A stretch of 64,000 nucleotides of DNA. Source: a virus (taxonomy: Duplodnaviria > Caudoviricetes). The notes beneath the pieces were generated by a model. It had not been told where the DNA came from. It ran no database searches and was given only the letters and a program-made list of their open reading frames with translations. The stretch spans positions 128,001 to 192,000 of IMG/VR virus record IMGVR_UViG_3300010346_000241, one strand, 5' to 3'. Made by a program: the position numbers and the translations under genes. Positions 1 through 21,473 of the stretch are shown here, in pieces. The stretch's first letter is position 1. Each line of letters opens with the position of its first letter.

Positions 1-1774
1 TACTCTTGCTATTCTCGTCCTTGATATTAGTCGAAGATGCAGAAGTAGCAGAGTGCTTTTCCTCAGCTTCCTGCTTAAGGATGTATATGAACTGTTCACC
101 TACCGTAGATGGTTTACTAGACCATACAGTACGATAAGTTCCATCTGAGTTAGGGATAGAAACAAGGAGATGCTCCTGCTTAATGTAAGTGAACTTCTCA
201 TAGAGCTTTCTGACCTTATCGAAGTCAACATATTCACTTATAGGAAGAAGAGAAGTATAGATTCCTTTAGGTCCTTCATTAGGATGAAGCATTGACTCTA
301 TGAACAAGATAGCTTCCTGATCAGTATCAAAGTTATCGATTGCGGTCTTAAGGAAGTCTGCGAGATCTGGTGAAAGCTCTCTGTAGTACTGTTCAAGAAT
401 ATCGAAGATCTCAACAGCATTGAGACAATTTGAATCAATGAAGTTAAGAATTCCTCTGCCGATACGATTGAGAGATAACTCTGAGAGCTGAGCTATATTA
501 AGTCTGTTTACACAAGTACTCTCATCCCATATAATGTCGAGAGGAGTACCATCTGGAAGTTTTGGCATCTTCCAATCAGGCCATATGTCTGCGATAACGC
601 CCTTACCACCGTTACGATTGGCAAGCTTATCACCTATAGATATAACATGATCACAGTACACAAGGAACTGTATTACCATATTACTAGAGATCTTACCATC
701 TTCGATGAACTGTTTACCTTCAAGTCTACCCTTACAGGTATAGTACATCTCTTCAAGTTCGTACGATAACTTGTAGTCTTTGTTGTTGATGTAGTTAGCC
801 ATCGCATCGACAAACTGTCTAGCGAAACGGTTCTCTTCATCATTATATGCTTTAAGCTGTCCCTCGAAGACGTTATAGAGTTCTCCCTCTTCACATCCTG
901 GGGCTATCTGTTTGTTAGAATACACCTTAATATCTACGACTTTGCCTTCCTTAGGAACTATAGTCTCATCAGAGATCGTTATGTTTCTAAGAGACTCTCT
1001 AGATAAGGTGAATGCTGAGTTGTCTGAGTTGGCCTTTCTTATGGAGCAGAGTATACCATTCTTTGTCTCCTCTCCAAGATCAGGGAAGGCTTTATAAACA
1101 GTATCATCTCCATACAAGTTAAGAAGCACATCGTTATCATTCAACTTAACGGTTATGAGCTTTAACTCTGGAGAACTAAGCTTCTTACGGAAACCTTCTC
1201 TGATGACTACAGGGTCTTCAGTAGTTTGTGGAAGACTTGCATAAGTAGCAAGCGCATTTACACCAGCCTTATAGTTATCAAACTCATCAAAGCTGGTGCT
1301 CTTCTTATATACTTTTCCCTTAGGAATGACATCTCCTTCATTGAGAGAATCAAGATATTCATTGTTCCAAAGGAAACCGAATGTTTCGGTGTTGTGCTGA
1401 CAAACAGTACGAGTCACCATATTGAGCTCGTTACGTTCGTTTCTGATGATAAGATAGTACTCATGATCTGGATACATAGAGTATCTACTTATCTTAGCTA
1501 TTACTTCTTGTGAGTCTTCTGATCTTATAAACGCAGAAGACATGTGTCCATATCTGTTTTCTACTCCAGTACCAACAAGAGGAACTTCTGATTCCTTAGG
1601 ACACTTAGCTTGCTTCTTTTGGTTGGAGTGCATTATCTTTCGTGATGATGAATTCAGAGACTCACATGGCTGGAGTCCTGAACGACCAAGCATGAGATCT
1701 ATCTGATCCTGGCTGAATGTGGCATGTACCTCTGCAAATGCTCGGTCAAATTTTGGGTTCTGTTCCATTTTCAT
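1..1774 (-). CDS. rpoB: RNA polymerase beta subunit, C-terminal half (split RNAP, probably non-virion); 3'-truncated by window edge
   Basis: Not in ORF track; read by hand. AAAGGAGG RBS then ATG at 1774 (MKMEQNPK...). Motifs NSSSRKIMHSNQKKQA, PLVGTGVE and GDKLANRNGGKGVIADIWPDWKMPKLPDGTPLDII match the beta regions GDK..RHGNKG and MP.LPDGTP.D. Confidence 0.93.
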   Translation of the reverse strand, partial: MKMEQNPKFDRAFAEVHATFSQDQIDLMLGRSGLQPCESLNSSSRKIMHSNQKKQAKCPKESEVPLVGTGVENRYGHMSSAFIRSEDSQEVIAKISRYSMYPDHEYYLIIRNERNELNMVTRTVCQHNTETFGFLWNNEYLDSLNEGDVIPKGKVYKKSTSFDEFDNYKAGVNALATYASLPQTTEDPVVIREGFRKKLSSPELKLITVKLNDNDVLLNLYGDDTVYKAFPDLGEETKNGILCSIRKANSDNSAFTLSRESLRNITISDETIVPKEGKVVDIKVYSNKQIAPGCEEGELYNVFEGQLKAYNDEENRFARQFVDAMANYINNKDYKLSYELEEMYYTCKGRLEGKQFIEDGKISSNMVIQFLVYCDHVISIGDKLANRNGGKGVIADIWPDWKMPKLPDGTPLDIIWDESTCVNRLNIAQLSELSLNRIGRGILNFIDSNCLNAVEIFDILEQYYRELSPDLADFLKTAIDNFDTDQEAILFIESMLHPNEGPKGIYTSLLPISEYVDFDKVRKLYEKFTYIKQEHLLVSIPNSDGTYRTVWSSKPSTVGEQFIYILKQEAEEKHSATSASSTNIKDENSKS

Positions 1775-1830
1775 GGTGTGATCCTCCTTTGAAGATACAG
1801 ATTAGAGAGAGTGTGGGCTCTCTCCAATCC

Positions 1831-1841
1831 ATAGTATATAA
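1831..1841 (-). promoter_or_regulatory. early-type phage promoter TTATATACTAT
   Basis: Recurrent motif upstream of the beta-fragment gene, followed by hairpin 1802-1827. Confidence 0.6.
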
Positions 1842-1853
1842 CAACTCTCTGGT

Positions 1854-3113
1854 TTATGCTACGATATCTTCTTCTCTACTATTGAGTTTCATGTAGAGCT
1901 CCTGAGTGATGCCAGTAGCCTTAATGAACTCCTCGTCAGTAGCATTATCCATTCTATGGAGCATATTGTGGAGAACCTTGGTACAAGTGTCTAGGAAGAC
2001 ATTCTTGAACTCCTCGTTCTCAAAGAGTTTCTTCTTGAAGTTCTTCTGAGCGAACTTAACGTCCTGATAGCCGTCGATGTAAAGGTAAGCACCTGCACCC
2101 TTAATGAAACCATTGTCATTGAGCATATTGTAGAGTGTGAGGATTACATCAAAGCCGATGTCCTGATTGAAGATCATATCTGTACTTGCACCTGCACGGT
2201 TAGTGCGAGACTTAACCATAGTGATCAGTACGTGATTACCAGAAATACCAAGACCCTTATCTTCAGTAAGCTTGGTGTTATCATCAAGTCTGAAGATATT
2301 GTTTGCGATATAGAACGGAGTTACACCGCCAGGACAAGTCTCATCCTGCTTAAGATAGATATTCTGACCCTTAGAATGAGTGAATGCATTGATCTCAATC
2401 TTCTGGGTGATATGGTTAACGATGAAGACGATGATATTAGCTGCCTTACAGAGAGGAACTATTCTTCTCATTGTAGTAGCTATCATCTTAGCAGCTGCTG
2501 TAGTAGACATCTGACCACTAAGCTCTTCTTCCTGAGTCATTTTCTCAGGCATCAGCATAGCCAGTGAGTCAAGGATATACACTGTTGGCTGCATCTTGTA
2601 GATACGGTTACCTCTACTGTCAAACTTGCCAGTATCATAGGTAAATTCATCTGCATGCTCTGTCTTCTTGTCATAGATGATCTTGATAGACTTATAGAAA
2701 GTCTCAGTGCTGATACCTGCATTACGAACGATCATCTTTGTGTTAAGCTCATCAGGTGTCATGCCTGTAAGGATCTCATCACGACGACGTGTGATACCGC
2801 CCTCGATACTATCCTCGAAGATAGCTCCCTTATCGAAGCCTCTGATTATATTGCCTGCGGCCTGCTTGATGAATGTGGACTTACCACATCCTGAACGACC
2901 GATTACCATATTGATTGAGCCGTCTACGATGCCTACGCTATCGTACTCGAACTCTATACCTCTATTATTGTCAGTCACTCTGATGATCTGACCATTGAGG
3001 TAGTCAACGTTTGGGAAGCCAGTGCTGTACTGAACGTCAAACACTGCCTCAGTTTTCATGCCATAGTCCTTGGAATCCTTAACTGCATTCCTGAACATTT
3101 CTGTTAGTAACAT
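1854..3113 (-). CDS. recA: RecA/UvsX-like recombinase
   Basis: Walker A GRSGCGKST, Walker B YILDSLA, RecA-like IVFIVNHI...TCPGG and KSR motifs; AGGAGG RBS. Confidence 0.9.
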   Translation of the reverse strand: MLLTEMFRNAVKDSKDYGMKTEAVFDVQYSTGFPNVDYLNGQIIRVTDNNRGIEFEYDSVGIVDGSINMVIGRSGCGKSTFIKQAAGNIIRGFDKGAIFEDSIEGGITRRRDEILTGMTPDELNTKMIVRNAGISTETFYKSIKIIYDKKTEHADEFTYDTGKFDSRGNRIYKMQPTVYILDSLAMLMPEKMTQEEELSGQMSTTAAAKMIATTMRRIVPLCKAANIIVFIVNHITQKIEINAFTHSKGQNIYLKQDETCPGGVTPFYIANNIFRLDDNTKLTEDKGLGISGNHVLITMVKSRTNRAGASTDMIFNQDIGFDVILTLYNMLNDNGFIKGAGAYLYIDGYQDVKFAQKNFKKKLFENEEFKNVFLDTCTKVLHNMLHRMDNATDEEFIKATGITQELYMKLNSREEDIVA

Positions 3114-3210
3114 AACTATTCCTCCTTGATTGGATCGATTATGAACACTCTTAGGTGTTCCTGTATTGAATAGTTTTGAGAACTATAAAGTCTTACAACG
3201 GGTAGAATTA

Positions 3211-3232
3211 GAGGGTGGAGTTAACCACCCTC
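3211..3232 (-). terminator. GC hairpin after tubulin gene
   Basis: gagggtgg-agttaa-ccaccctc inverted repeat. Confidence 0.6.
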
Positions 3233-3241
3233 ACATTCTTT

Positions 3242-4579
3242 TTACTTGATTCCCTCTTCAGTGAACTCTGTAAGGTGCTTGCTAGTACCCATAGAGTGCT
3301 TAGGGTTTGAACGTGTCTTTCCGTCAGAAGTAAGAGGATTAGTCTTTACTTCTTCATCTGCCACCTTGCTAGTTGTGTCCTGAACATTCTCAGGCGCTGA
3401 GTGCTTCGACGTTCCGAGTCTGACACCCGACTTCCTCTTGTTGCGAGATAAGACTGCGCTAGCTTCATCGCTAGAAGCTGTTGCGAAGGAGTCAAGAAAT
3501 GAATCATCCCTTTCAACCTTCTTCTCCAGCTGAGCATTAGTCTCAAGCTTACCAAGAGTATCGAAGAAGTCATCCTCTGCAGCGTTCATCTGGTTGGTAG
3601 ACTTCTCGAACTTATCGTACATACTCATCAGCTCAGCCTTAGGCATGTTGATACCTGAAGCGATGACTCTGATGAAACTCTTCTGCTTAGGATTGTACTG
3701 TCTGTGGATGAAGAACTCCTGGAAGCCATTCCAACAGAGCTTCTTCTTGATGATAGAGAACGAAGTGTCGAGTACTTCTATAGTCTCCTCAGGTATGTTC
3801 ATGTAGATACCTACCTTAGTAGCAGAAGGCTCGAAGTCGAGTGAAGTAGTATTGTCGATCATATCGCCAACAAGCTTGTTGAACTGGTCAGCATTCTTGA
3901 TACGGTCTGACACTTCAACTTCACCAGCGAAGACTACACCAGGATTGGTGATAATCTTATAGTGATCAGTATCATCAATGTTCTGCTCGCAGTCTATAAG
4001 ACCCTGAGCTCCGATGATAGAGAGTGTCTTAGAGATATCCTCATTAGCAAGCTTCTCTGCAACGAAGATATTGCCGTTAGCTTCATTGAGGAAACGTCTG
4101 TTTGATACAGTGATGATTCCACAGTTAGCACCCTTAAGGTCTCTGAAGTAGTTGATTGTGTTCTGAAGACCTCTTACATCAGACTCGAAGCCTGTGATCA
4201 GTGTAATGATAACAGGAAGCTGCATAGAGTTACTGATGTACTGAGCAAGTACTACAGAAGAGCCGCTACCAGAAGCACCCTCTGAAGTAGTGATGATATT
4301 TACATAGTCTGTATATTCGGGGATAAGTTCCTCGAGATAGTTTGGGTTAACCTTGATAAAGTCGTTCATCAACGCACGCGCTGCGTCTCTTACTTTACCG
4401 CAACCTGCGTCAGGATCGTCTGAGATGATGATAGCAGTAGGTCTGTACTCTGAAGGGACATCTTTGATCGTAGAGTTAACTACGACACATCTGTTCTTAT
4501 CAAGTACACCATTGTCAATGGCTGCAATCATTGCCTTTGTAGCACCCTGACCACAACCGAATGTGAATGATCTAAGCAT
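3242..4579 (-). CDS. phuZ: tubulin/FtsZ-family GTPase (PhuZ/TubZ-like)
   Basis: N-terminal FGCGQGA, GCGK loop, signature variant TSEGASGSGS, T7-like NIDDTD, long disordered C-tail. Confidence 0.85.
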   Translation of the reverse strand: MLRSFTFGCGQGATKAMIAAIDNGVLDKNRCVVVNSTIKDVPSEYRPTAIIISDDPDAGCGKVRDAARALMNDFIKVNPNYLEELIPEYTDYVNIITTSEGASGSGSSVVLAQYISNSMQLPVIITLITGFESDVRGLQNTINYFRDLKGANCGIITVSNRRFLNEANGNIFVAEKLANEDISKTLSIIGAQGLIDCEQNIDDTDHYKIITNPGVVFAGEVEVSDRIKNADQFNKLVGDMIDNTTSLDFEPSATKVGIYMNIPEETIEVLDTSFSIIKKKLCWNGFQEFFIHRQYNPKQKSFIRVIASGINMPKAELMSMYDKFEKSTNQMNAAEDDFFDTLGKLETNAQLEKKVERDDSFLDSFATASSDEASAVLSRNKRKSGVRLGTSKHSAPENVQDTTSKVADEEVKTNPLTSDGKTRSNPKHSMGTSKHLTEFTEEGIK

Positions 4580-4603
4580 GGGGTCGATCCTCCTTTAGGA
4601 TTA

Positions 4604-4741
4604 TTATTCGTTGTCCTTCTTCTTGGACTCTTTATCAGCTTCAGTAGCCTTAGAGTCCTGTTCGTTGAGCGGGGTGAAACCAAGCTGAGCTCCTACATAG
4701 CCCTGCTCATTGATTACTCCGTAGTTGTTCTTATCGTCCAT
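4604..4741 (-). CDS. 45-aa micro-protein upstream of the tubulin gene
   Basis: AAGGAGG RBS; MDDKNNYGVINEQGYVGAQLGFTPLNEQDSKATEADKESKKKDNE*; lies between the promoter at 4771-4782 and the tubulin RBS. Confidence 0.75.
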   Translation of the reverse strand: MDDKNNYGVINEQGYVGAQLGFTPLNEQDSKATEADKESKKKDNE

Positions 4742-4770
4742 AATAGCACCTCCTTCGGCACAATAGTGAT

Positions 4771-4782
4771 TACTGTATGGTT
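4771..4782 (-). promoter_or_regulatory. AACC-N6-TA middle/late promoter
   Basis: AACC-atacag-TA on the minus strand upstream of the micro-ORF and tubulin. Confidence 0.6.
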
Positions 4783-4812
4783 TGCAGATTGTTTCGATAA
4801 AATATAGATGGG

Positions 4813-4823
4813 TTACATACTAT
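4813..4823 (+). promoter_or_regulatory. early-type promoter TTACATACTAT
   Basis: Motif match followed by long hairpin 4824-4882. Confidence 0.6.
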
Positions 4824-4901
4824 TAAGATGTATATACAACGGCCACTTATAACCACTTCTTGGCTGATGTGTATAAATCTTATATGAAAGGAGGAGCATA
4901 T

Positions 4902-5654
4902 ATGCTTATAAACATGATGAATGATCTCATCTTTTATGACGATGACAACCTCGTCAGACAGGAATTCTCTAAGGAAGTTTGGGAACTTACCGAAGAGATA
5001 CAGAATGAAAAGAATCGTCTGACAGATTCTTTAGAACCAAGTATGATTCCAAAGGATATTCAGTCGATGCTTTCGTCCGTAAACTGGACGAGAACCCAGG
5101 CAATCAAGAACCTTATCTGGAACCCTTATCAGTATGAACCACTAACTGCAATAAGTAGCGGTAACCTGCTTTATAAGGGTAAGTACAGGATAAGAATATC
5201 CTTCATCCCACTCCCAAACAGAGCGGAAAGGATAAAACAGTTCAAGGATGGAGACCTATTTGGTGATATCCTTGTAACAGATATGGTGCGTATAGAGTTC
5301 TATACAGCAAAAGCACCAAAGAATACAAAGAGAGACCTTCCTATATGGAAGTGCATTACACCTCTTTGTATAAGTCATATAGACAGCACAACCAACGGTA
5401 CATGGAGCTGTTTTATGTATGACGAAACTGGAGCGAAAGCTTACGAGTCGCTCCGAAGCAGTACAAAGGCAATATTGGAATCGCCAGATGTGATAGATTT
5501 TAGTATCATGTCGATGATTCTGAATATTACAGATGCTTATAAAGTAAAATGCATAAACGCAGGTGTCGAATATGGTGAATGTGAACTGATCGTCAATGAA
5601 GACGGCACAATCGAATGTAAAAGAAAGAATGACTCTAATGTAGAGTCTGAATAA
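4902..5654 (+). CDS. hypothetical protein
   Basis: ORF; AAAGGAGG RBS favours ATG 4902 over the track start 4860. Confidence 0.75.
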   Translation: MLINMMNDLIFYDDDNLVRQEFSKEVWELTEEIQNEKNRLTDSLEPSMIPKDIQSMLSSVNWTRTQAIKNLIWNPYQYEPLTAISSGNLLYKGKYRIRISFIPLPNRAERIKQFKDGDLFGDILVTDMVRIEFYTAKAPKNTKRDLPIWKCITPLCISHIDSTTNGTWSCFMYDETGAKAYESLRSSTKAILESPDVIDFSIMSMILNITDAYKVKCINAGVEYGECELIVNEDGTIECKRKNDSNVESE

Positions 5655-5673
5655 TGAAAGGACGTATAATATC

Positions 5674-5814
5674 ATGAACAAGGACTATATGAGTGAAACC
5701 ATTGAATCTTCTAAAGCGTTCGATGAAAAGTTTGGTATCTGGAACTTCAATGAATATGATAGTACTGAGCTATTTGTGATGCAAGTAATTCGTAATGCAT
5801 ATCAAATAGACTAG
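5674..5814 (+). CDS. 46-aa hypothetical protein
   Basis: AAAGGA RBS, ATG 5674 to TAG 5814 (MNKDYMSETIES...). Confidence 0.5.
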   Translation: MNKDYMSETIESSKAFDEKFGIWNFNEYDSTELFVMQVIRNAYQID

Positions 5815-5833
5815 GATATCGAAGCTGTAATAA

Positions 5834-5856
5834 CCCCACCCCGCGAAGGGGTGGGG
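5834..5856. terminator. bidirectional terminator hairpin
   Basis: ccccacccc-gcgaa-ggggtgggg between convergent genes. Confidence 0.7.
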
Positions 5857-5863
5857 CATTCTC

Positions 5864-6583
5864 TTACTTCTCGATTCTTTTCTTTTTCATTGACAGAGTG
5901 TATGGAGTCATATAGTCCTCTTCCAACAGGTTTGTCATTATAAAACTTCCTATCAAGAAGACATCTGTTGTAGTTCTAGCTACCTGTGCAGTCTTAGGAC
6001 TCTCTAAGTCCTTCAATGATACTTGACCAGTAGTATTGATCATTGTATACATCTTGTTCTTAGCTTCCATATCATCTGCCTTAGCTCTGGTAACTTCTTT
6101 GATAGTATCATCGAGTCCTTGAAGTACCAAACTCTCAAGCTCTCTGTCACTCTCGATACCCTTACTGTTACCTACGATCTGTCCAGTCTTAGGGTTACGA
6201 GTATCGATGTTTGTGTTATAACCACTCTTCTTAGTGGCGAACTGTTTGAGCTTAGGAATGTTAAGATAGCATATGAAGGCTTCATACTCTCCTCCTACAG
6301 CAACACCATCTTTGTTCTCGTAGAGTTGAGGATTCTTTACCTTCTCCATCAGTGGTACGTTTATAGCCTTGAGTCCATTAAGACACTTCTCTGGGGTAAG
6401 TTCCCTTTCGAAGGCAGAAGTTTGTAATCTAAGGGGAAGTCTTCTCTTACAGAAGTTAAGGAACTGCTCATCTGTCATTCCAGCGAACAGTTGTTTATAG
6501 AAGTCTGAGTTAGCATGAGTAGGATCTATAGCATCAAATGCCTTATAGATCAAAAGTTCAGCTTTCTTACGGTTAGCATTCAT
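5864..6583 (-). CDS. rpoB: RNA polymerase beta extreme C-terminal fragment (probably virion RNAP)
   Basis: YLNIPKLKQ...RNPKTGQ...ESDRELESL...G...TIKEVTRAKADD aligns with the beta C-terminus YMLKL.H...TQQP...GEMEVWAL..YG...LQE.LTVKSDD. Confidence 0.8.
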   Translation of the reverse strand: MNANRKKAELLIYKAFDAIDPTHANSDFYKQLFAGMTDEQFLNFCKRRLPLRLQTSAFERELTPEKCLNGLKAINVPLMEKVKNPQLYENKDGVAVGGEYEAFICYLNIPKLKQFATKKSGYNTNIDTRNPKTGQIVGNSKGIESDRELESLVLQGLDDTIKEVTRAKADDMEAKNKMYTMINTTGQVSLKDLESPKTAQVARTTTDVFLIGSFIMTNLLEEDYMTPYTLSMKKKRIEK

Positions 6584-6613
6584 AGTCTATGTTCCTCCTT
6601 ATAGAGTGTGTAT

Positions 6614-6625
6614 TATAGGATTGTT
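6614..6625 (-). promoter_or_regulatory. AACA-N6-TA late promoter
   Basis: AACA-atccta-TA upstream of 6583. Confidence 0.65.
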
Positions 6626-7020
6626 AAAGTAAGACGATTCGACTATATATTCTAATAGTGTAAGTGGTTAAGGGCATAAGCCCAAGTGATTTTTAAGCCA
6701 TTTACACTGGATGTAAAATCTATATGACTCTATAGGAGAATGAGTCTTCATGCATTCAGGAAGAAAGGGTGTACCCTGATAGGGTGTCTCCAAATGGGAC
6801 CACATTGCTCAGCTCGTCCTTCGGTCAAAGGTGCAGCACCTACTGAGTATAGAATATGAACGCTAACATGAGGAAAAGAATGTGGACACAAGGATACAGA
6901 ACAAAAACAAACTGTTGTATTCTCGCAGCAGCATTCTTTCATTCGACACAACTTAGATGACCATACTATAAAAAAGAGTCTTCTGAGTATAGCTCTGAAG
7001 AATTAAAGACACTGATTCTC

Positions 7021-7281
7021 ATGTCCATCTACCATAGTGGTGAATTCATACCATTCAATATGGAATGCATGATTGACCACATATGTGATGACGACATCGA
7101 CATTGTTGCAAAAGGAACAAGCATACTGTATGAGCTCGAAGAGATCTGGGATGAAGAACTAGAGTGTGAGCCTACAAGACCAAACATGAACAGCAGCAGA
7201 GGTATGAGAAAACATTTGTCTTCACCTATCCTTCATCTGACGGTTACTGGTGCACCAGAGAGAAGCCTAGTAGATGCATGA
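7021..7281 (+). CDS. hypothetical protein, possibly 3' remnant of a decayed gene
   Basis: 86-aa ORF without a clear RBS; the same frame continues upstream to 6856 past one TGA. Confidence 0.4.
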   Translation: MSIYHSGEFIPFNMECMIDHICDDDIDIVAKGTSILYELEEIWDEELECEPTRPNMNSSRGMRKHLSSPILHLTVTGAPERSLVDA

Positions 7282-7754
7282 TAAAAGTCGACTCTGGAGA
7301 TATCTCTGTCATGAAGCTGTCTGGAGTGGATCCTACAATTGATCAGACTGCTGTAATGGTAAGAGCAGCTATGGCAAGATCTATCATGATCCACGGATAT
7401 GATAGAAAACGTCGAAAGTATCCATTTGACGTAAAGACAAGGGTTGGGTATTCTGGTTGTAGAGATGTATCGTTAGATCTTTACGAGAAAGTACACAAGC
7501 ATTATCACAGGAAGTATACAGCGGCCGAGCTTCATATTTCTATGTGTGACAAAGTGTCTGACTTTGGCATGTATAGTGGTGATGCTGTTGAGATACTTTG
7601 GAGTCTTAGCGGTAAACCTTTCAGGTTCAATGATAAGATCTACGAAGGGGTAAATGAAGAAATGAAATCATTAGGGATATGTTTCTCTAAACCTCCTCGT
7701 AGGAACGACCTCATACTTACTAATGTAAGTTATGATCCTAAACGAGAGTGGTAA
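7278..7754 (+). CDS. hypothetical protein
   Basis: 158-aa ORF with ATGA overlap, followed by terminator. Confidence 0.6.
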   Translation: MIKVDSGDISVMKLSGVDPTIDQTAVMVRAAMARSIMIHGYDRKRRKYPFDVKTRVGYSGCRDVSLDLYEKVHKHYHRKYTAAELHISMCDKVSDFGMYSGDAVEILWSLSGKPFRFNDKIYEGVNEEMKSLGICFSKPPRRNDLILTNVSYDPKREW

Positions 7755-7765
7755 TCTGACATCAC

Positions 7766-7803
7766 AAAAGAATGAGAGGGCTGGTTCCTCTCATTCTTTT
7801 TTT
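7766..7803 (+). terminator. Rho-independent terminator
   Basis: aagaatgagagg-gctggtt-cctctcattctt followed by a T tract. Confidence 0.8.
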
Positions 7804-7809
7804 GTCGGA

Positions 7810-7821
7810 AACATCACTATA
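7810..7821 (+). promoter_or_regulatory. AACA-N6-TA late promoter
   Basis: AACA-tcacta-TA. Confidence 0.7.
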
Positions 7822-7844
7822 ATCTATACATAAGGAGGTGCAAC

Positions 7845-9032
7845 ATGGCCAATTCTAACCAGATGACTAAGGTGATAGACACTAAGATCTACCCTCTGGT
7901 CAAGAACACACTATCCAAATCGCTTACTAAGTTTAAGTCTCTGATGTCGAACTTTATGTCTACTCGATCTAAGGGACTATATGATACTTTCCCTGCTACT
8001 CGTATGCTCTATGGACAACAAGATGCTGATATGCTATGTTCTGCTCTTGGAGTTAAGGCTAACGAGATACAAGGATTCATCAACGAAACCTACTACGGTA
8101 AGATAGCCAACTTTAACCCTAGAGCTGCTAAGGATCCTGTTACAGTGCTTTGCATGTGCATGATCAAGTACTTCTACTCTAAGAGAGATCAGAAGAACCT
8201 TGAGCTTGCTATGATCTATACTTGCTTCACAGGTAAGTTCTATCCCTCTATACACTATGCTCAGTACCCTAAGGCTGTTCCTGCAGACTACAGATTCGTG
8301 TGTGACTATGTGGTAAACAATGAACTTTCTGACAAGTTCCTTCTGAAGACAGAAGGAAACGTTATTGGTGTTATGCGAAACACCACTCAGACATGGATCG
8401 ATACCTATAAGGATAGATTCACTGGAGTGACTGATGATGAAGATTATGTTTATATCATACAACAGCTCCATGTACGTATCAAGTCCTTCATTAAGAACAC
8501 TGCTGAGGTCTACTACAAGTGTTACAATGACAAGGACTATCTCACATATGAGTCTGATGACATGAGCCAGGATAACTTCCGTCTTACTCGGAATGACTCT
8601 ACTAAGATAGACACCGCCGTCAACAGAACACTTACTTACATCACTTCCCATGATGTAGACTATCGTCTATGTAAGATGTGTAGTGATGAGAATGTTAAGA
8701 CTGATGAGATACGTTCTATCATCGAGAGTATCGTAAAGAACACTGATAATCTCGATCTGATGAGGGAGCTTCTCTACCTCATGGTATCTACATACTTCCA
8801 GAGTAGTAGTACTAAGGATGTAAGAGATATCGACTTCATCACATTCTCTATTAAGGCTAAACCTAACACGAAGAACAAAGACATTCTTCGTCAAGGTGAA
8901 GTCGTAGAGGAGTTGCTTATGGGTAACTCTACAGCATACTCTAGACGTAAGAGTCGTAAAGCTACACAACTCTCGTACAACAGAGCAATCCTTACATACT
9001 TCGCTCTGATTATAAACTCTGCAAACAAGTGA
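7845..9032 (+). CDS. hypothetical protein, likely virion-associated
   Basis: 395-aa ORF, AAGGAGG RBS, late promoter, lies in the head gene cluster. Confidence 0.75.
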   Translation: MANSNQMTKVIDTKIYPLVKNTLSKSLTKFKSLMSNFMSTRSKGLYDTFPATRMLYGQQDADMLCSALGVKANEIQGFINETYYGKIANFNPRAAKDPVTVLCMCMIKYFYSKRDQKNLELAMIYTCFTGKFYPSIHYAQYPKAVPADYRFVCDYVVNNELSDKFLLKTEGNVIGVMRNTTQTWIDTYKDRFTGVTDDEDYVYIIQQLHVRIKSFIKNTAEVYYKCYNDKDYLTYESDDMSQDNFRLTRNDSTKIDTAVNRTLTYITSHDVDYRLCKMCSDENVKTDEIRSIIESIVKNTDNLDLMRELLYLMVSTYFQSSSTKDVRDIDFITFSIKAKPNTKNKDILRQGEVVEELLMGNSTAYSRRKSRKATQLSYNRAILTYFALIINSANK

Positions 9033-9043
9033 GGTGAACTCTA

Positions 9044-10360
9044 GTGGGAATATATTCAATACAACCGAGAGACGAAGTACTTAACGAAGTATACTTCGGA
9101 GAGACTCCTGGCATCATGAGATGCTTCAATGCCTTCTCTACATGGAGAAGTAAGTATCTTATGGACAGAAAGCTCTATATGATGAACAGTGCTGCTGAAC
9201 GTGACCCTCTGTTGGGTAAGTTCGTAGCAGAGATTGAGAGGGAGTTTGGTCTTTACTCTTACTCATTCATCATCATCAACAAAGACCAGATCAATGCATT
9301 CACATTCCCATGCTTCTTCAACTTCAATAGTAACCTTAAGGGACCTAAGAGAGTTGAGTTTGGTAAGGACGGTTACAAGTTCAAGAAAGAATGTCAAGTA
9401 TCTATGCTGACTTGTATGTATGCTGGTCTTTTCTTCAACTCAGACTTCACCAATAGAGAAGTTTTCGCTATTATTCTTCATGAGATAGGCCATAACTTCC
9501 AAGACGTTATCTCTGATAAGATGCATACGTTAGGACAGTGTTCTACTATGAATAGAATTCTTCTTGCTGGTATCATGCTTGCTACTGGAGAGATGGAGCC
9601 TCTCATCTATCCATTCATGAATGATAAGACTTTTGGCGCTGTATCTAAGTCTTATAATGAGATGAACATCGGACAAAAGAATAGTATCATATCGTTTGCT
9701 AATACTATATACGGAGCTACAATGAATACTATCAATCTAGGAGTAGATCTTATGACACTATTCCTTCCTCCAATACTTATTCTTAATGCTGCTGTAAGGA
9801 CTATCAGAGATGCAGCTATAGGAGTGTTGTTAGCTCCATTAGTAAGGAGACATTCTTACTATGGCGAGATTATGGCTGACAAGTTCGCTGCTTATTACGG
9901 ATTTGGTAAGGATCTTGTTACTGGTCTAGACAAGCTGTCAGATTTCCGAAAAGGTGCAGGTATCAAAGCTAGGTTTATGGAGATTCCTATCTACTCTCAC
10001 ATTCAGGAACTCATTCTTCTTCCTCTCAAGTTCATATTCGACATTACAGACGAACATCCAGCTTCTCAAGCTAGATATAAGACTGTAATAGATGGTCTTA
10101 AGGATGATCTTAATCAACCTGGTATATCACCTAAGCTTAAGAAACAGCTTCAGTCTGATATAAAGGAGACTGAAGATACAATAGAAGAAGTTCTTGAGAA
10201 AGGTAAGGAAGTAGATGATCCTCGTTTCATTGAGAACTATATGAGGTCATTCCTCTATCATGCCTGTGGAGGAGACCTTAAGTATCTTCTCAAGAAGAAG
10301 ACTTTCGACACAGAAGCAGATGTTCAGCAGACCTACATTAAGAACACTAAGATCAAGTGA
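9044..10360 (+). CDS. zincin (M48-like) metallopeptidase, putative head protein
   Basis: ILHEIGH, downstream EIMADKFA...G...L...L.KL and HP motifs typical of M48; GTG start with GAGG RBS. Confidence 0.75.
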   Translation: MGIYSIQPRDEVLNEVYFGETPGIMRCFNAFSTWRSKYLMDRKLYMMNSAAERDPLLGKFVAEIEREFGLYSYSFIIINKDQINAFTFPCFFNFNSNLKGPKRVEFGKDGYKFKKECQVSMLTCMYAGLFFNSDFTNREVFAIILHEIGHNFQDVISDKMHTLGQCSTMNRILLAGIMLATGEMEPLIYPFMNDKTFGAVSKSYNEMNIGQKNSIISFANTIYGATMNTINLGVDLMTLFLPPILILNAAVRTIRDAAIGVLLAPLVRRHSYYGEIMADKFAAYYGFGKDLVTGLDKLSDFRKGAGIKARFMEIPIYSHIQELILLPLKFIFDITDEHPASQARYKTVIDGLKDDLNQPGISPKLKKQLQSDIKETEDTIEEVLEKGKEVDDPRFIENYMRSFLYHACGGDLKYLLKKKTFDTEADVQQTYIKNTKIK

Positions 10361-10395
10361 ACCTTATAATAAATTACTGAAAGGAGGAACACGTT

Positions 10396-11205
10396 ATGCC
10401 TAACGTATTCTTAGAAGATGACGACGAGCTCAAGAAGAAGAAAGACGACGAAGACGAAGAGCTCGACGACAAAAAAGACAAAGACAAGAAGGATGATGAC
10501 GACGATGATTCTTCTAGCGACGGAAATGACTATCTCGATGATATGGAGTCAGATGAAGATGACGATGATTCTTCTTCTGATGATGATTCTGATTCATCGG
10601 GTAACGATTACCTTGGTGACGAAGAAGATTCAGATTCGTCGGAGGATGACTCCGATTGGGGCGATTCCGATGGTGATTATAGTTCTAATGATTATCTCGG
10701 AGACGATGACTCTACATCAGATTCAGGAGAGTGTTGTCAGGAGACAGGACTCCTTGCCAAGCTCGCATATGCAATCGTCGTTGCAACCAATAACTTCGAA
10801 CACGTACACCTTATGTGTGCTGGTAAGAAGTTCGATACTATACACAACATGACAGACAATCTTGTCGGCAAGTGTTGGTATCTCATCGACATTGCAGCAG
10901 AGCTTGCTCTTGAGGATGAAGCTTGTGAGCTTGACAACTTCTGTAATGCTGCTAAGTACGTTCCTGAGATGGGTGTAGAGACTGAGAAGACTTATGACTA
11001 TGAGACAGCTTGTACAGCAGTCAGTGAGACTCTCAGAAAGCTCATCGATGTAACCAAGGAAGCAAGAGAGGCTTCAGACAAGTCTCACGTTCAGAGCAAA
11101 CTCGATGAGTGGCTCGCTACCTTCAACAAGGAATACAACTTCCTGATGAAGAGACGTATGAAGAATGTAGATGAATCTGCAGTGGTATCAAACGATTACA
11201 TCTAA
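10396..11205 (+). CDS. Asp/Ser-rich N-terminus fused to a ferritin/Dps-like domain
   Basis: About 110 aa of acidic low complexity with 3x NDYL(G/D)D; HVHLMCAGKKFDTIH...IDIAAE resembles Dps HW...G..F..LH...D..AE. Confidence 0.6.
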   Translation: MPNVFLEDDDELKKKKDDEDEELDDKKDKDKKDDDDDDSSSDGNDYLDDMESDEDDDDSSSDDDSDSSGNDYLGDEEDSDSSEDDSDWGDSDGDYSSNDYLGDDDSTSDSGECCQETGLLAKLAYAIVVATNNFEHVHLMCAGKKFDTIHNMTDNLVGKCWYLIDIAAELALEDEACELDNFCNAAKYVPEMGVETEKTYDYETACTAVSETLRKLIDVTKEAREASDKSHVQSKLDEWLATFNKEYNFLMKRRMKNVDESAVVSNDYI

Positions 11206-11219
11206 GAGACAAAAAAGAT

Positions 11220-11244
11220 GCCCACTGGGGAACACCCAGTGGGC
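11220..11244 (-). terminator. terminator (U tract on the minus strand)
   Basis: gcccactggg-gaaca-cccagtgggc preceded by aaaaaa on the plus strand. Confidence 0.75.
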
Positions 11245-11570
11245 TAAATCATTGGGTTTAGATTCTTTGAATTGATTGCATACACAGTGGCTAGAAAATA
11301 TAGTGAATGAAGGGATGAATACGATTGGGAAACGTATTCTGATGTCCTACTTAACCCAATAGGTGGGAGCTAGTATGTTATATAGGTAGATTGACATTGT
11401 GTGAAATGAAACGGCATAGTTACTATGATAGGCTAGTCAATGTAAGATGGGGCTGACGCGCGTACTGCTCTCATATTTAAATCTCCCAATAGTATATCCA
11501 CTTCCTGGACGGGGTACAGTGTTGCTTGTCAGCTGATTCATCATTGCACTTGGTTATAAGAGGTATTATA
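11245..11570 (-). ncRNA. putative structured non-coding RNA
   Basis: About 330-bp gap without a credible ORF, with several inverted repeats, bounded by hairpins. Confidence 0.4.
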
Positions 11571-11592
11571 TGAAGAGTAATCTCAGATGAGA

Positions 11593-12159
11593 TTACTTCT
11601 TCTTGTCTGATACCCAATCAGGGCAAGGTGACTTGACCTTGAGTCCTTCATGAGCAGGTACGATAGATTCAGCGTTCTCGTAGCGGATAGAACCATCCTG
11701 GTTAACGCCGACCTTCTTAGGATATCTCTTAGTTGTCATCTCAACGTCCTTGAGCTGAATAGAGATATTGCTCTTCTCTGTACCACCGAGATTTACACTT
11801 CTGCCTGTTCTGAGAGCTGTGTTTACGAAGTCCTTAGAGAGCTTTACCATTGTTTCAGCATCGCTCTTCTTAGCTTCGTATGTGTCAACGAGTGTCTCAG
11901 CCTCAGCCTTAGGCATCTTTGTTGTTGCAGACACAATGCCTGCTACCATTCCTCTGAACTCAGTTGCAGGACAGTGCTGTGTAACACCGCTGTTTGAGTA
12001 CTCAGAGTACTGGAAGTTTCTGTCGTTAAGCATTGCTTTCATTACTCTTACTTCATCTCTTGTAGAAGCACTCTTCTGAGTGAGATGAGTCTTGATGTCA
12101 TTGACGAGAGCGTTAACTCCCATCTCTTCTGTGTTGGCTGTAGCATTCTTGTTTGCCAT
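11593..12159 (-). CDS. HU/IHF-like DNA-binding protein
   Basis: VSATTKMPKAEAETLVD, LRTGRSVNLG and IVPAHEGLKVK resemble HU helices and arms; AGGAGG RBS before MANKN at 12159. Confidence 0.55.
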   Translation of the reverse strand: MANKNATANTEEMGVNALVNDIKTHLTQKSASTRDEVRVMKAMLNDRNFQYSEYSNSGVTQHCPATEFRGMVAGIVSATTKMPKAEAETLVDTYEAKKSDAETMVKLSKDFVNTALRTGRSVNLGGTEKSNISIQLKDVEMTTKRYPKKVGVNQDGSIRYENAESIVPAHEGLKVKSPCPDWVSDKKK

Positions 12160-12513: not shown

Positions 12514-13392
12514 ATGAACAAAGATGTATGCGTTGGTATGATTATCAACGAGTCAGTCACTGAATCAGATTCTGTAGTTATCTCACAGGAAGGTGGCAGA
12601 GTCTATGCTACTGGTATACTGCAGGACCTTGAGATAGAGAACAGAAATGGTCGTATCTACGAGACTAAGGAAATGGATCCTGAGCTTAATGGTGAGCGTC
12701 TTCAGGAGCTTATTAAGGCAGGATACCTTAGAGGCCATGCAGGACATCCTTCCAGCAATGAACTCTCTATACAGAGTGTAATTGATCCTAAGCTTGTATG
12801 CGTACAGTTCGATAAGGTATGGAGAGATGGTAAGTATATCCATGGTAACTTCCATGGAACTAACAATGAACTTGGTGCTATGTTTAACCAGGATCTTATT
12901 GATGGATGTAAACCTGCATTCTCACTCAGAGCATTGGGCAGCGTAGATCGCTCTAAGGATGGTAGATGTCATGTAAGAAACATCAGAATCATCACTTGGG
13001 ACCATGTTATCTTCCCATCTCATAAGAGAGCTTACACAAGTCATCTCATCGATCCTAAGGATAAGAACAAAACTTTCAACGAATCTGCTATAATCGGCAT
13101 AAACGGAAAACCTCTCGTAGACAATGAACTTCACAGAAAGGCTATGATTACAGAAGCTGCTGCTACTGATGGTATACTCACTCCTATCATGAACCAGCAG
13201 GTATGTAACTTCATTAAGGAAGAGTCTGCTAACGTTAAGTTCATCGTTGATACATTCGAGACTTTGTATGAATCTGCTATCATCGTTGACGGTGGTAAGA
13301 GAGTTGCTCTGACTACTACAGACGGCATGAAGGTTATTGTTAACCTTGAGCAGTATGTACAGAACGCTATCATGGACTGGTGCAGTAAGTAA
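12514..13392 (+). CDS. prohead (capsid maturation) protease, T4 gp21-like
   Basis: NRNGRIY, GHAGHP, FSLRALGS and TWDHVIFPSH motifs; AACA-tcttag-TA promoter at 12474-12485. Confidence 0.88.
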   Translation: MNKDVCVGMIINESVTESDSVVISQEGGRVYATGILQDLEIENRNGRIYETKEMDPELNGERLQELIKAGYLRGHAGHPSSNELSIQSVIDPKLVCVQFDKVWRDGKYIHGNFHGTNNELGAMFNQDLIDGCKPAFSLRALGSVDRSKDGRCHVRNIRIITWDHVIFPSHKRAYTSHLIDPKDKNKTFNESAIIGINGKPLVDNELHRKAMITEAAATDGILTPIMNQQVCNFIKEESANVKFIVDTFETLYESAIIVDGGKRVALTTTDGMKVIVNLEQYVQNAIMDWCSK

Positions 13393-13434: not shown

Positions 13435-13515
13435 GTCTCCGTTATATATTATAGAGGTGTATAGAGTCGCTCAACTCTGTACAACACAATCTATTATATG
13501 AAAGGAGACAAAACT

Positions 13516-20853: not shown

Positions 20854-21029
20854 GTGATATGACCTCCTTGTGTGATTATTGTAGAGTTCTGACCAAACTC
20901 CTTTATTACACCTATCTATAGTATACAATGGACACAAGAATTGGTGGAGGCTTGTGGCCTCCACCTTTTCTTGATTAAAGGAAGTTTCTCGAAACAGCGC
21001 AATCAACAGCGCTAGTAGGAGGGGATGTC

Positions 21030-21473
21030 TTATTCGTTTGCAGTGGAAGGAAGAACAGCCTCGAAGCAAGAGATGAACTTAACTTCACCTGTGTCTTTGT
21101 TGAGTCTCACTGCTGGCACGATCTTAAGGCTGCCGTTGTTGATAACGTCCTTAAGCTTTGTATAAGTTGCTGTAGGCATAGATACAGTGAACTTCTTGGT
21201 TTCGTTGTTGAACTCTCTGATCTCGCCGAGATCGATCATTCCCTTGGACTCGGAGCTATCAAAGAAAGTAGACTTTCTCATCTTAGCAGTGATAGCGCAG
21301 CAGTCGAAGCTACATGAATCGATAATAGCGATGAGCGTATCGATTATAGAATCGTACTTGTCTGAAGAACCGAGTTCAAACTCAGCGGTTGTGTACTTAG
21401 CTACTCTCGTAGTGTTCGGGTTAGGCTTTGTGTAGCCTTTCTTGTTGTTGTTGTACTTAGGGTTCTTGTTCAT
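21030..21473 (-). CDS. hypothetical protein between gyrB and gyrA
   Basis: 147-aa ORF with AAAGGAG RBS. Confidence 0.7.
   Translation of the reverse strand: MNKNPKYNNNKKGYTKPNPNTTRVAKYTTAEFELGSSDKYDSIIDTLIAIIDSCSFDCCAITAKMRKSTFFDSSESKGMIDLGEIREFNNETKKFTVSMPTATYTKLKDVINNGSLKIVPAVRLNKDTGEVKFISCFEAVLPSTANE

Follow-up and report, generated by a model that had tools for sequence, protein, structure and literature searches.

A micro-protein gene and a tubulin-family gene in one apparent transcription unit

We analyzed a window of 64,000 nt, positions 128,001 to 192,000 of the virus record IMGVR_UViG_3300010346_000241, in which a gene for a tubulin/FtsZ-superfamily GTPase is preceded on the same strand by a gene for a very small acidic protein. 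The features at this locus, in coordinates of the window, are the following.

4771..4782, minus strand: late-type promoter-like motif AACCATACAGTA (AAC[AC]-N6-TA), 29 nt upstream of the micro-ORF ATG; a motif match
4747..4756, minus strand: strong ribosome-binding site of the micro-ORF, GAAGGAGGTG, read from the sequence
4604..4741, minus strand: gene for a 45-aa acidic micro-protein, from the ORF and its family conservation
4588..4596, minus strand: ribosome-binding site of the tubulin gene, AAAGGAGGA, read from the sequence
3242..4579 (stop codon included), minus strand: tubulin/FtsZ-superfamily GTPase gene, 445 aa, from ORF, fold and profiles
4262..4282, minus strand: T4 signature loop EGASGSG, tubulin residues 100–106, from family column counts
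3965..3985, minus strand: T7 catalytic loop Q-N-I-D-D-T-D, tubulin residues 199–205, from conserved columns
3245..3574, minus strand: C-terminal tail of the tubulin, residues 336–445 (∼110 aa), from an alignment of 15 relatives
3211..3232, no strand assigned: 8-bp GC-rich hairpin, 10 nt past the tubulin stop, from a terminator scan

The two ORFs lie 24 nt apart and share a common reading frame. The motif ahead of them, AACCATACAGTA, is the AACC-N6-TA variant of the promoter type used by the non-virion RNA polymerase of phage AR9. In intergenic DNA, AAC[AC]-N6-TA was ∼3.5-fold enriched (AACA, 38 seen and 10.5 expected; AACC, 17 seen and 4.9 expected), and in the source genome it is usually found 20–30 nt ahead of start codons. 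Similarly, of 42 distinct regions upstream of micro-ORF homologues, 18 carried AAC[ACT]-N6-TA at a distance of 15–45 nt, compared with 4.3% of random positions (∼10-fold). The motif class enriched before genes of the source genome is that of the AR9 late units, which belong to the non-virion RNA polymerase (AACA-N6-TW), although the variant present here is AACC rather than AACA. A search for sigma-70 promoters upstream returned two weak matches (3.6 expected), neither of them rightly placed. Ribosome-binding sites of the AAAGGAGG type were the most enriched 8-mers upstream of ORFs in the source genome. The micro-ORF and the tubulin gene are apparently co-transcribed from an AR9-type late promoter, and the single promoter that a preliminary description had proposed for both genes finds support at the motif level. 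The hairpin, whose T-run sits on the plus-strand side and for which we infer minus-strand termination, probably marks the end of the two-gene unit.

The source record comprises 229,448 bp with an estimated completeness of 100% (CheckV). Its RNA polymerase beta subunit is nearest to that of PBS1/AR9 (30% identity), and the orthologues of UvsX and of the non-virion RNA polymerase beta-C lie near one another, in the gene order of AR9. The source is an uncultured giant phage akin to Bacillus phage AR9, and the hosts of the tubulin-bearing phages are probably Bacillota. The earlier assignment to a Firmicute jumbo phage stands as a probable one.

The tubulin retains its GTPase loops and carries a long tail

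The AlphaFold2 model of the tubulin (pLDDT 85.7, pTM 0.81) shows the two-domain tubulin/FtsZ fold. A Foldseek search of the PDB with this model gave 500 or more matches at E ≤ 0.001, of which CetZ2, TubZ and FtsZ were the top ones (∼1e-15). Sequence identity to the matched FtsZ and CetZ structures was 13–18%, and the match to c-st TubZ had a TM score of 0.83 with the length of the TubZ chain as reference. The Pfam Tubulin model (PF00091) scored 20.6 bits (E 6e-4), below its gathering cut-off of 33, because of sequence divergence and not because the fold is missing; some relatives have a precomputed PF00091 match.

Across 60 family members, the T1, T4 and T7 loops are conserved, and T1 reads G8-x-G10-x-G12. 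Along the T4 columns (n = 60) we counted E in 44 members, G in 60, G in 50 and A in 10, T in 44 and S in 16, G in 59, S in 46 and G in 59, and the family norm is EGGTGSG. The reading EGASGSG had been reported before as a deviation from the tubulin signature. The sequence itself is as reported, but with Glu in 44 of 60 members it is a variant of the family norm, and PhuZ of phiKZ likewise reads GASGS. At T7, N200 is shared by 56, D202 by all and D205 by 58 of the 60 members. In filaments of the FtsZ type, the GTPase site of one subunit becomes complete through this N-x-D-x-x-D loop of the next. All three loops are intact in the sequence, from which catalytic competence is predicted.

The tail begins with DDFF at residue 336, followed by DDSF-L (DDSF at 358), a basic patch RNKRK, a variable linker, two copies of GTSKH (389 and 431) and the terminal peptide F-T-E-E-G-I-K, for which the family pattern is [FY]-[ST]-E-[ED]-x-I-K. 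The DDFF/DDSF motifs and the duplicated GTSKH in a tail of ∼110 aa had all been described before, and all are in place. F361 is nearly invariant family-wide. In the AlphaFold2 model the tail is mostly disordered, with short helices at 361–365 and 371–385.

Such a tail could mean that the protein is an FtsZ mimic, which would disturb host division or borrow host FtsZ partners through the tail. We regard this as very unlikely. The arrangement of core, disordered linker, short motifs and conserved terminal peptide is FtsZ-like, FtsZ and CetZ score highest against the family profile, and the segment ...V-L-S-R-N-K-R-K-S-G may resemble the basic end of the C-terminus of Bacillus FtsZ. However, the basic motif lacks a P-x-F-L core and is not C-terminal, FtsZ_C (PF12327) and NCBIfam ftsZ did not match the tubulin, and the gene is an accessory one that is often lost. 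The N-x-D-x-x-D loop is shared with FtsZ and CetZ; the first glycine of the signature is Glu here. In FtsZ, a conserved C-terminal peptide binds FtsA, ZipA or SepF. The terminal peptide of the tubulin appears to differ from it, and neither this peptide nor the short motifs fit the pattern D-I-P-x-F-L.

A virus-only tubulin family outside canonical PhuZ

A total of 217 clusters (50% identity) matched the tubulin family at E ≤ 0.001. The family is large, distinct and so far virus-only, and is found on 120–310-kb contigs of uncultured phages akin to AR9. We placed it relative to CetZ, FtsZ, TubZ and PhuZ by profile E-values: against PDB sequences, the family profile gave 5e-19 for CetZ, 2e-18 for FtsZ, 3e-17 for c-st TubZ and 3e-4 for PhuZ, the top scores (5e-19 to 1e-15) belonging to FtsZ and CetZ entries. 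BLASTP of the tubulin against phiKZ gp39 reached E 0.012 over 95 residues. PHROG and NCBIfam held no match to the tubulin, and neither did 50,697 GenBank phage records searched by tblastn. No match to phrog_4733 or to Pfam TubZ_C_2 (PF22334) was found anywhere in the genome. These two null results and the remote PhuZ profile score agree with the earlier view of a tubulin distinct from canonical PhuZ.

PhuZ is the spindle tubulin of the nucleus-forming Chimalliviridae; its dynamic filaments, with three or five strands, bring the phage DNA to the centre. The protein studied here resembles PhuZ (201phi2-1 gp59, phiKZ gp39) in being a tubulin-fold GTPase of a jumbo phage with split multisubunit RNA polymerases; the signature variant of phiKZ PhuZ recurs, and the PhuZ tail also has acidic motifs. 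In contrast, the tail here is far longer (∼110 aa) and bears other motifs, the sequences are remote from one another, and no chimallin is detectable. Loss of the tubulin in some relatives is common to both, PhuZ being non-essential and sometimes lost within its phage family (PMC11724907).

Searches for chimallin, TubR and centromere repeats

Chimallin was sought in all frames of the complete genome with PF25677, phrog_4795, phiKZ gp54 and a custom HMM built from 54 chimallins. None of them gave a match, the best E-value with filters off being 3.5, at the level of sequence HMMs, which a highly divergent chimallin-like shell protein could escape. This whole-genome check bears out the earlier statement that no chimallin is recognisable. 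A canonical PhuZ with its chimallin was therefore rejected as the identity of the system, given unmatched PhuZ families, a remote profile and empty chimallin searches.

Beside the tubulin, no TubR-like gene was found: the sole co-oriented gene upstream encodes the 45-aa acidic peptide, and neither this peptide nor the flanking 264-aa ORF matched Pfam, PHROG or NCBIfam. Positions 2900–7100 contained no repeat family, tandem or dispersed, beyond pairs of chance size, and in positions 1–12,000 no array of tandem repeats lay close to the locus, the only signals being two short low-scoring rows at ∼10.1 and 10.6 kb. The absence of TubR and iterons described before thus holds for the surroundings of the tubulin gene, and a TubZRC partition system was rejected with neither adaptor gene nor repeats at the locus.

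These results bear on the reading of the protein as a TubZ-type DNA-partition motor for a plasmid-like prophage or pseudolysogen. TubZ of c-st (CST189; PDB 3V3T, 4XCQ) and of Bacillus plasmids is indeed similar: c-st TubZ is among the best matches by fold and by profile, and the setting of a Firmicute phage and a flexible tail are shared. The Firmicute phage c-st uses TubZ for such partition (PMC7950403), and TubZ depends on its flexible C-terminal tail for its dynamics and for the binding of partners (PMC5322520). However, the tubulin studied here has no TubR gene and no tubC/tubS repeats at its locus, an iteron or centromere array is absent within 4 kb, the promoter motif is of a late lytic type, and the gene lies in the replication/transcription block of an AR9-like genome of virulent type. 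A role in partition is most improbable.

The tubulin is an accessory gene in a conserved late block

The usual gene order in this region is RNA-polymerase beta fragment, micro-protein, (glucosaminidase), (tubulin), (∼300-aa gene), UvsX and non-virion RNA polymerase beta-C. In this window, an inserted gene parts the RNA-polymerase fragment from the micro-protein, which stays with the tubulin. Certain relatives have a homologue of the head maturation protease within 3 kb of the micro-protein; in this genome the distance is 8 kb.

Seven relatives with genomes 94–100% complete lack a tubulin. In AR9, LPJP1 and PALS_2, a profile search that detected the phiKZ positive control found none either; AR9 also differs from the source phage in lacking the micro-protein, with no match in six frames. 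In the UvsX tree, two tubulin-less phages lie inside tubulin-bearing clades. This makes the tubulin an accessory gene, optionally inserted into a late gene block that is itself conserved, and its family has been gained or lost repeatedly.

The micro-protein belongs to a widespread family, and a dedicated partnership with the tubulin is improbable

The unannotated 45-aa ORF with two [IL]NEQ motifs, noted in the preliminary description, is present (VINEQ and LNEQ). Its product has an N-terminal core G-V-I-x-E-x-G ... G-x-G-F .. L-N-E-x-D followed by a tail rich in Lys, Glu and Asp, and 37 diverse members all share E12 and G14. In 68 of 70 tubulin loci, an HMM of the micro-ORF matched a frame upstream on the same strand (E 1e-24 to 0.15) and gave only two weak stray matches elsewhere in the six-frame translations. 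Among protein clusters (90% identity), 475 matched the micro-protein at E ≤ 0.001, none of them named, while the ESM Atlas held no look-alikes. Judged by this conservation, the micro-protein is a genuine, widely conserved family, far beyond chance.

The micro-protein had been proposed to regulate the tubulin or to act as its adaptor in a distinct cytoskeletal module. In such a module of two components it could be, for instance, a nucleator, a capper or a cargo link. Several observations speak for such a link. In this window the genes are 24 nt apart and share one late promoter motif; the micro-ORF precedes the tubulin in 68 of 70 loci, including those whose tubulins are only 27% identical; and it adjoins the tubulin while other neighbours vary (loci L063–65 and L073, and this window). 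Folding the natural in-frame read-through fusion of both proteins, with the three TAA codons read as Gly, yielded a beta-hairpin and a helix for the peptide at pLDDT 61–82, the output consisting of pLDDT and secondary structure. On the other hand, the confidence of the peptide in this model is limited to those values, one to five other genes separate micro-protein and tubulin in most loci, and no fused forms occurred among 267 tubulin homologues. Crucially, the seven tubulin-less jumbo-phage relatives keep a micro-protein with an intact core, and the two tubulin-less phages nested among tubulin-bearing ones also speak against the proposal. Since the micro-protein is kept in relatives without a tubulin, and the tubulin is accessory, the regulator/adaptor claim is unsupported, and the micro-protein is probably no partner dedicated to the tubulin; a dedicated two-component module seems unlikely to us. 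Because of the 68 of 70 loci and the adjacency retained in this window, some functional link between the two may nonetheless exist.

We also considered that the micro-protein is tied to some other fixed neighbour. This was rejected, as the glucosaminidase, the ∼300-aa gene and the RNA-polymerase fragment are each missing beside it in some loci.

Alternatively, the micro-protein might target host FtsZ, and the phage tubulin, where present, would then be a replacement cytoskeleton under phage control. MciZ of Bacillus, Kil of lambda and gp0.4 of T7 are precedents for the blocking of FtsZ or division, and MciZ of Bacillus subtilis is a 40-aa capper of FtsZ filaments. A host target would explain why the micro-protein occurs with or without a tubulin and why it lies beside a tubulin-family gene, and a small, acidic protein with a predicted hairpin and helix would suit such a role. 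However, its sequence resembles that of no named family, and the likeness to MciZ is a functional analogy limited to very small size, the predicted hairpin and helix, and the place beside a tubulin-family gene; the micro-protein is dissimilar to MciZ in sequence and persists without a phage tubulin. We consider an FtsZ target quite unlikely. A broader and rather unlikely proposal is that the micro-protein is a new small modulator that would cap or nucleate host FtsZ and also, where there is one, the phage tubulin by beta-strand addition, both genes then forming a cytoskeleton-takeover module of chimallin-less giant phages with Gram-positive hosts.

Finally, the micro-protein could be a small prohead or internal protein, unrelated to the tubulin, that the head maturation protease cuts at [VIL]-x-E. 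The Glu within I-x-E never varies among its members, L-x-E is often found as a second site, the protein is acidic and has a late promoter motif and a strong ribosome-binding site, and the protease homologue is not far away in the genomes mentioned above. However, the second site is not conserved in several members, the residue following Glu is Q, I or V, and the neighbours are chiefly replication and transcription genes. At cleavage sites of the T4 type, a small residue usually follows Glu. A prohead role is highly improbable.

A proposed filament-forming GTPase without a detectable phage-nucleus shell

The reading that we favour, with a probability of roughly 0.6, is that of a virus-only filament GTPase, accessory in a late gene block and operating without a shell, next to a micro-protein whose function does not depend on it. 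The tubulin would polymerise head to tail in a GTP-dependent manner, the T7 loop completing the active site of the neighbouring subunit, and would thereby form dynamic filaments. Contacts between subunits or with cargo may be made by the tail, through its DDFF motifs and its terminal peptide. Such filaments could serve to arrange phage DNA or to assemble virions, with neither a chimallin shell nor TubR and a centromere involved. The 45-aa product would be a well-translated, clade-wide small acidic protein with a function independent of the tubulin, and in this window its gene may simply head the late transcription unit of the tubulin.

The apparent independence of the micro-protein from the tubulin corrects its reading as a tubulin partner and points to a family of small late proteins, very widespread among phages, that annotation pipelines have left nameless. 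Work on phage tubulins has concerned two settings, PhuZ with the chimallin nucleus and TubZ with TubR and a centromere. As an abundant family with intact motifs and with no detectable chimallin and no adjacent TubR or centromere, the tubulins described here make it possible to ask what a phage cytoskeleton does without a nucleus, and to do so in probable Gram-positive hosts.

A divergent phage tubulin outside canonical PhuZ

The tubulin and the 45-aa acidic micro-protein encoded ahead of it occupy the following positions:

4604-4741 (-), micro-ORF, 45 aa, preceded by GAAGGAGGTG, with VINEQ and LNEQ motifs
3242-4579 (-), tubulin ORF, 445 aa, starting 24 nt after the micro-ORF and preceded by AAAGGAGGA
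3211-3232, GC-rich 8-bp hairpin, 10 nt past the tubulin stop codon

The 445-aa protein scored 20.6 bits against Pfam Tubulin, under the cut-off of 33, and had no match in PHROGs or NCBIfam. Its best phmmer match among PDB sequences was Aquifex FtsZ at just E 0.45, and tblastn over 50,697 GenBank phage records returned zero matches. Metagenomic relatives formed 217 clusters (50% identity) at E≤0.001, 98 of them at E≤1e-30, and the contigs that carry them are viral and mostly 120–310 kb long. AlphaFold2, given a 60-sequence alignment, yielded a model (pLDDT 85.7, pTM 0.81) with a confident core at residues 1–343 and a mostly disordered tail. Foldseek matched this model in the PDB to CetZ2, B. 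thuringiensis TubZ, c-st TubZ and many FtsZ chains (E about 1e-15, 13–18% identity). The sole close match in BFVD was an uncultured 'Myoviridae sp.' protein (32% identity), with phage Noxifer PhuZ at rank nine, and the nearest ESM Atlas clusters were viral (Uroviricota) or Bacillota tubulin-like proteins.

When PDB sequences were searched with a tubulin family profile, CetZ (E 5e-19), archaeal FtsZ (E 2e-18), c-st TubZ (E 3e-17), S. aureus FtsZ (E about 1e-15) and B. cereus TubZ (E 1e-10) all ranked ahead of PhuZ (E 3e-4). The tubulin is therefore not nested in canonical PhuZ. The profile found nothing in AR9, LPJP1 or PALS_2, with phiKZ PhuZ detected as a positive control (E 6.6e-6). We conclude that the protein is a genuine, divergent member of a distinct phage tubulin family.

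All motifs listed in the preliminary description were found: VINEQ and LNEQ in the peptide, and EGASGSG (residues 100–106), DDFF (residue 336), DDSF (358) and two copies of GTSKH (389 and 431) in tubulin. EGASGSG had been presented as a departure from the usual signature; it is present, but not an anomaly. Because Glu is the first signature residue in 44 of 60 family members, and the phiKZ PhuZ loop likewise reads GASGS, we consider it a family variant and not a defect. The conserved glycines of the family are G8, G10, G101, G104 and G106, the T7 loop carries N200, D202 and D205, and the GTPase machinery is predicted from sequence to be intact.

Relatives with tail identity as low as about 25% show a constant order of tail elements: E-D-D-F-F-D-x-L, another D-x-F-F motif with a Phe almost invariant across the family, [ST]-[DE]-E....V-L-x-R-N-[KR]-R, a variable linker, K-x-F-x-T-K-K, and the terminal peptide [FY]-[ST]-E-[ED]-x-I-K. 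The GTSKH duplication is restricted to the closest relatives. This architecture is that of a filament protein with short linear motifs, which would engage either adjacent subunits (PhuZ, TubZ) or partners (FtsZ).

A conserved micro-protein family

Conservation of the micro-ORF was established with an HMM of 12 upstream peptides: in 68 of 70 loci it matched a frame that lies upstream of tubulin on the same strand (E 7e-24 to 0.15). Elsewhere in six frames there were just two weak stray matches, and in one additional case the micro-ORF lay 8.6 kb upstream of tubulin. The core, compared across 37 diverse members, reads G-V-I-x-E-x-G-[DEY]-x-G-x-G-[FLV]..[LIV]-x-E-x-[DQ], with E12 and G14 invariant and a Lys/Glu/Asp-rich tail after it; an AGGAGG-type site lies upstream of nearly all members. 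Although 475 protein clusters (37–90 aa) match at E≤0.001, none is named. The micro-ORF is in single copy in the source genome and absent from AR9. The micro-protein thus represents a real family, named in no source.

MAFFT placed 27 of 34 truncated micro-protein cores (V-I-T-E-Q-G-D-L-G-L-G; 4690-4720 (-)) onto the tubulin T4 loop (T-S-E-G-A-S-G-S-G; 4262-4282 (-)). Since the glycine registers differ, the resemblance between these Gly-rich stretches is probably superficial.

Promoter motifs

No sigma-70-type promoter fitted the micro-ORF/tubulin unit. Intergenic DNA contained 38 copies of AACA-N6-TA (10.5 expected) and 17 of AACC-N6-TA (4.9 expected). This AR9-type late motif lies mostly 20–30 nt ahead of start codons, and AACCATACAGTA is found 29 nt ahead of the micro-ORF start. 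Homologues carry the motif 15–45 nt upstream in 18 of 42 distinct upstream regions, as opposed to 4.3% of random positions. Given this placement, the enrichment and the lack of a sigma-70 fit, a single promoter for both genes, as proposed earlier, and one of the late class, is the best reading at the level of motifs. AACAGGACTCTA, within the micro-ORF and 71 nt ahead of the tubulin start, may have arisen by chance.

A second class, GTT[AG]TATA[CT]TAT(AGAG), had 10 occurrences, of which 9 were intergenic (0.7 expected), 50–95 nt before start codons; examples are at 13440-13460 and upstream of -454..1774. Its likeness to the annotated early promoter of AR9, ATATATTAT, marks it as the probable promoter class of the source phage's virion RNA polymerase. 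Upstream of the micro-ORF, this class has an imperfect match only.

The micro-protein is retained without tubulin

Searching viral contigs by the peptide motif alone gave 42 loci, 30 with tubulin within 6 kb and 12 without; for one of the 12, tubulin lay 8.6 kb downstream, beyond the fetched locus. In one relative's genome (G010:C1:90833-91930, the contig of loci L045 and L096), the tubulin match runs through one in-frame TAA, with the micro-ORF 8.6 kb upstream; this copy may be rearranged or in decay.

Of the genomes behind these motif loci, seven are 94–100% complete (213–288 kb, several with terminal repeats). Neither the tubulin family profile nor Pfam Tubulin detected a match in any of the seven, while tubulin-bearing controls were detected, and their micro-proteins have the full core (e.g. 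V-I-T-E-Q-G-D-L-G-L-G-F..L-N-E-S-D-Q). In a quick UvsX tree, the two tubulin-less phages placed were among tubulin-bearing ones, one within a clade supported at 96% and the other next to a tubulin-bearing group (92% support). More than one loss or gain of tubulin is therefore probable, with the micro-protein being kept.

The micro-ORF and tubulin share a reading frame, with three TAA codons between them, which allowed the natural read-through to be folded with Gly in place of TAA (output: pLDDT, pTM and secondary structure). The peptide was predicted as a beta-hairpin (residues 8–11 and 21–24) and a helix (27–45) at pLDDT 61–82, and pTM was 0.78 versus 0.81 for tubulin alone. No fusion of the two was found among tubulin homologues.

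The absence of fusions and the retention in tubulin-less genomes argue against the proposed role as a tubulin regulator or adaptor. On the evidence, the micro-protein is better read as a small late protein of the whole clade that happens to share the tubulin transcription unit here than as a dedicated regulator. Three other roles have low probability: inhibiting host FtsZ, modulating the phage tubulin, or serving as a head peptide cut by a protease.

Gene order around the locus

The usual order in relatives is RNA polymerase beta fragment, micro-protein, glucosaminidase (PF01832), tubulin, a gene of ~300 aa, UvsX and non-virion RNA polymerase beta-C. Further features of the window are:

5864-6583, RNA polymerase beta fragment, 239 aa, first in the usual order
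4860-5654 (+), divergently transcribed gene, about 250 aa, between this fragment and the micro-ORF

The divergently transcribed gene likely starts at the ATG near 4902, after GAAAGGAGG. It has no family match and has homologues in the closest relatives only (76–82% identity); it appears to have been inserted recently, breaking the usual order.

The micro-ORF immediately adjoins tubulin in just 16 loci, the source genome among them. The two are separated in most relatives by a glucosaminidase whose N-terminal half is coiled-coil (about 3100-3990 in the fetched loci L013, L016, L020, L022, L040 and others; 3387-4241 in L081); no homologue was BLAST-detectable in the source genome. The ~300-aa gene, without Pfam or PHROG match, lies downstream of tubulin in most relatives (L013-L075, about 5200-6100; L080, 8213-9133; L081, 4256-5170), occurs also in tubulin-less ones, and is missing from the source genome. 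Downstream of the micro-ORF, tubulin-less phages carry the glucosaminidase and the ~300-aa gene, or Listeria-Bacteroides repeat proteins. One such subgroup has two of the latter (PF09479; L099 6293-8428, with equivalent positions in L104, L109, L113 and L119), a further hint of Gram-positive or gut hosts.

Genome and host

The window spans bases 128001-192000 of the source record (229,448 bp; 100% complete by CheckV); GC content is 40.8%. The RNA polymerase beta subunit adjoining the locus has its closest counterparts in Bacillus phages PBS1 and AR9 (30% identity), followed by Staphylococcus and Listeria jumbo phages and Yersinia phage phiR1-37. As in AR9, UvsX lies shortly upstream of the non-virion RNA polymerase beta-C subunit, and strong AAAGGAGG ribosome-binding sites predominate in upstream regions across the genome. 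The suggestion of a probable Firmicute jumbo phage is supported; from this RNA polymerase/UvsX kinship, the ribosome-binding sites and the Bacillota signal in ESM Atlas, the Firmicute host itself is plausible.

Structural and replication genes are intermixed in part of the window:

12514-13392 (+), head maturation protease homologue (phrog_3014, E 1e-19)
18463-21069 (-), topoisomerase II (phrog_551, E 2e-92)

In locus L051, the UvsX homologue is broken into two ORFs (6333-7130 and 7476-7940, gap ~350 nt), possibly by an intron, intein or mobile insertion.

Chimallin and partition genes

Chimallin was sought by four routes: Pfam PF25677, phrog_4795, phiKZ gp54 and a custom HMM from 54 chimallins, the last run with filters off on every genome frame of 25 aa or more. 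None detected it (best E 3.5, noise), extending to the whole genome what had been noted from the window. AR9-like phages are also placed outside the chimallin family in the literature (PMC13282480). The tubulin locus likewise bore out the reported lack of TubR and iterons, with no DNA-binding adaptor gene adjoining tubulin and no iterons or tandem arrays nearby. The tubulin family is of interest as one with neither a detectable chimallin nor an adjoining TubR/centromere.
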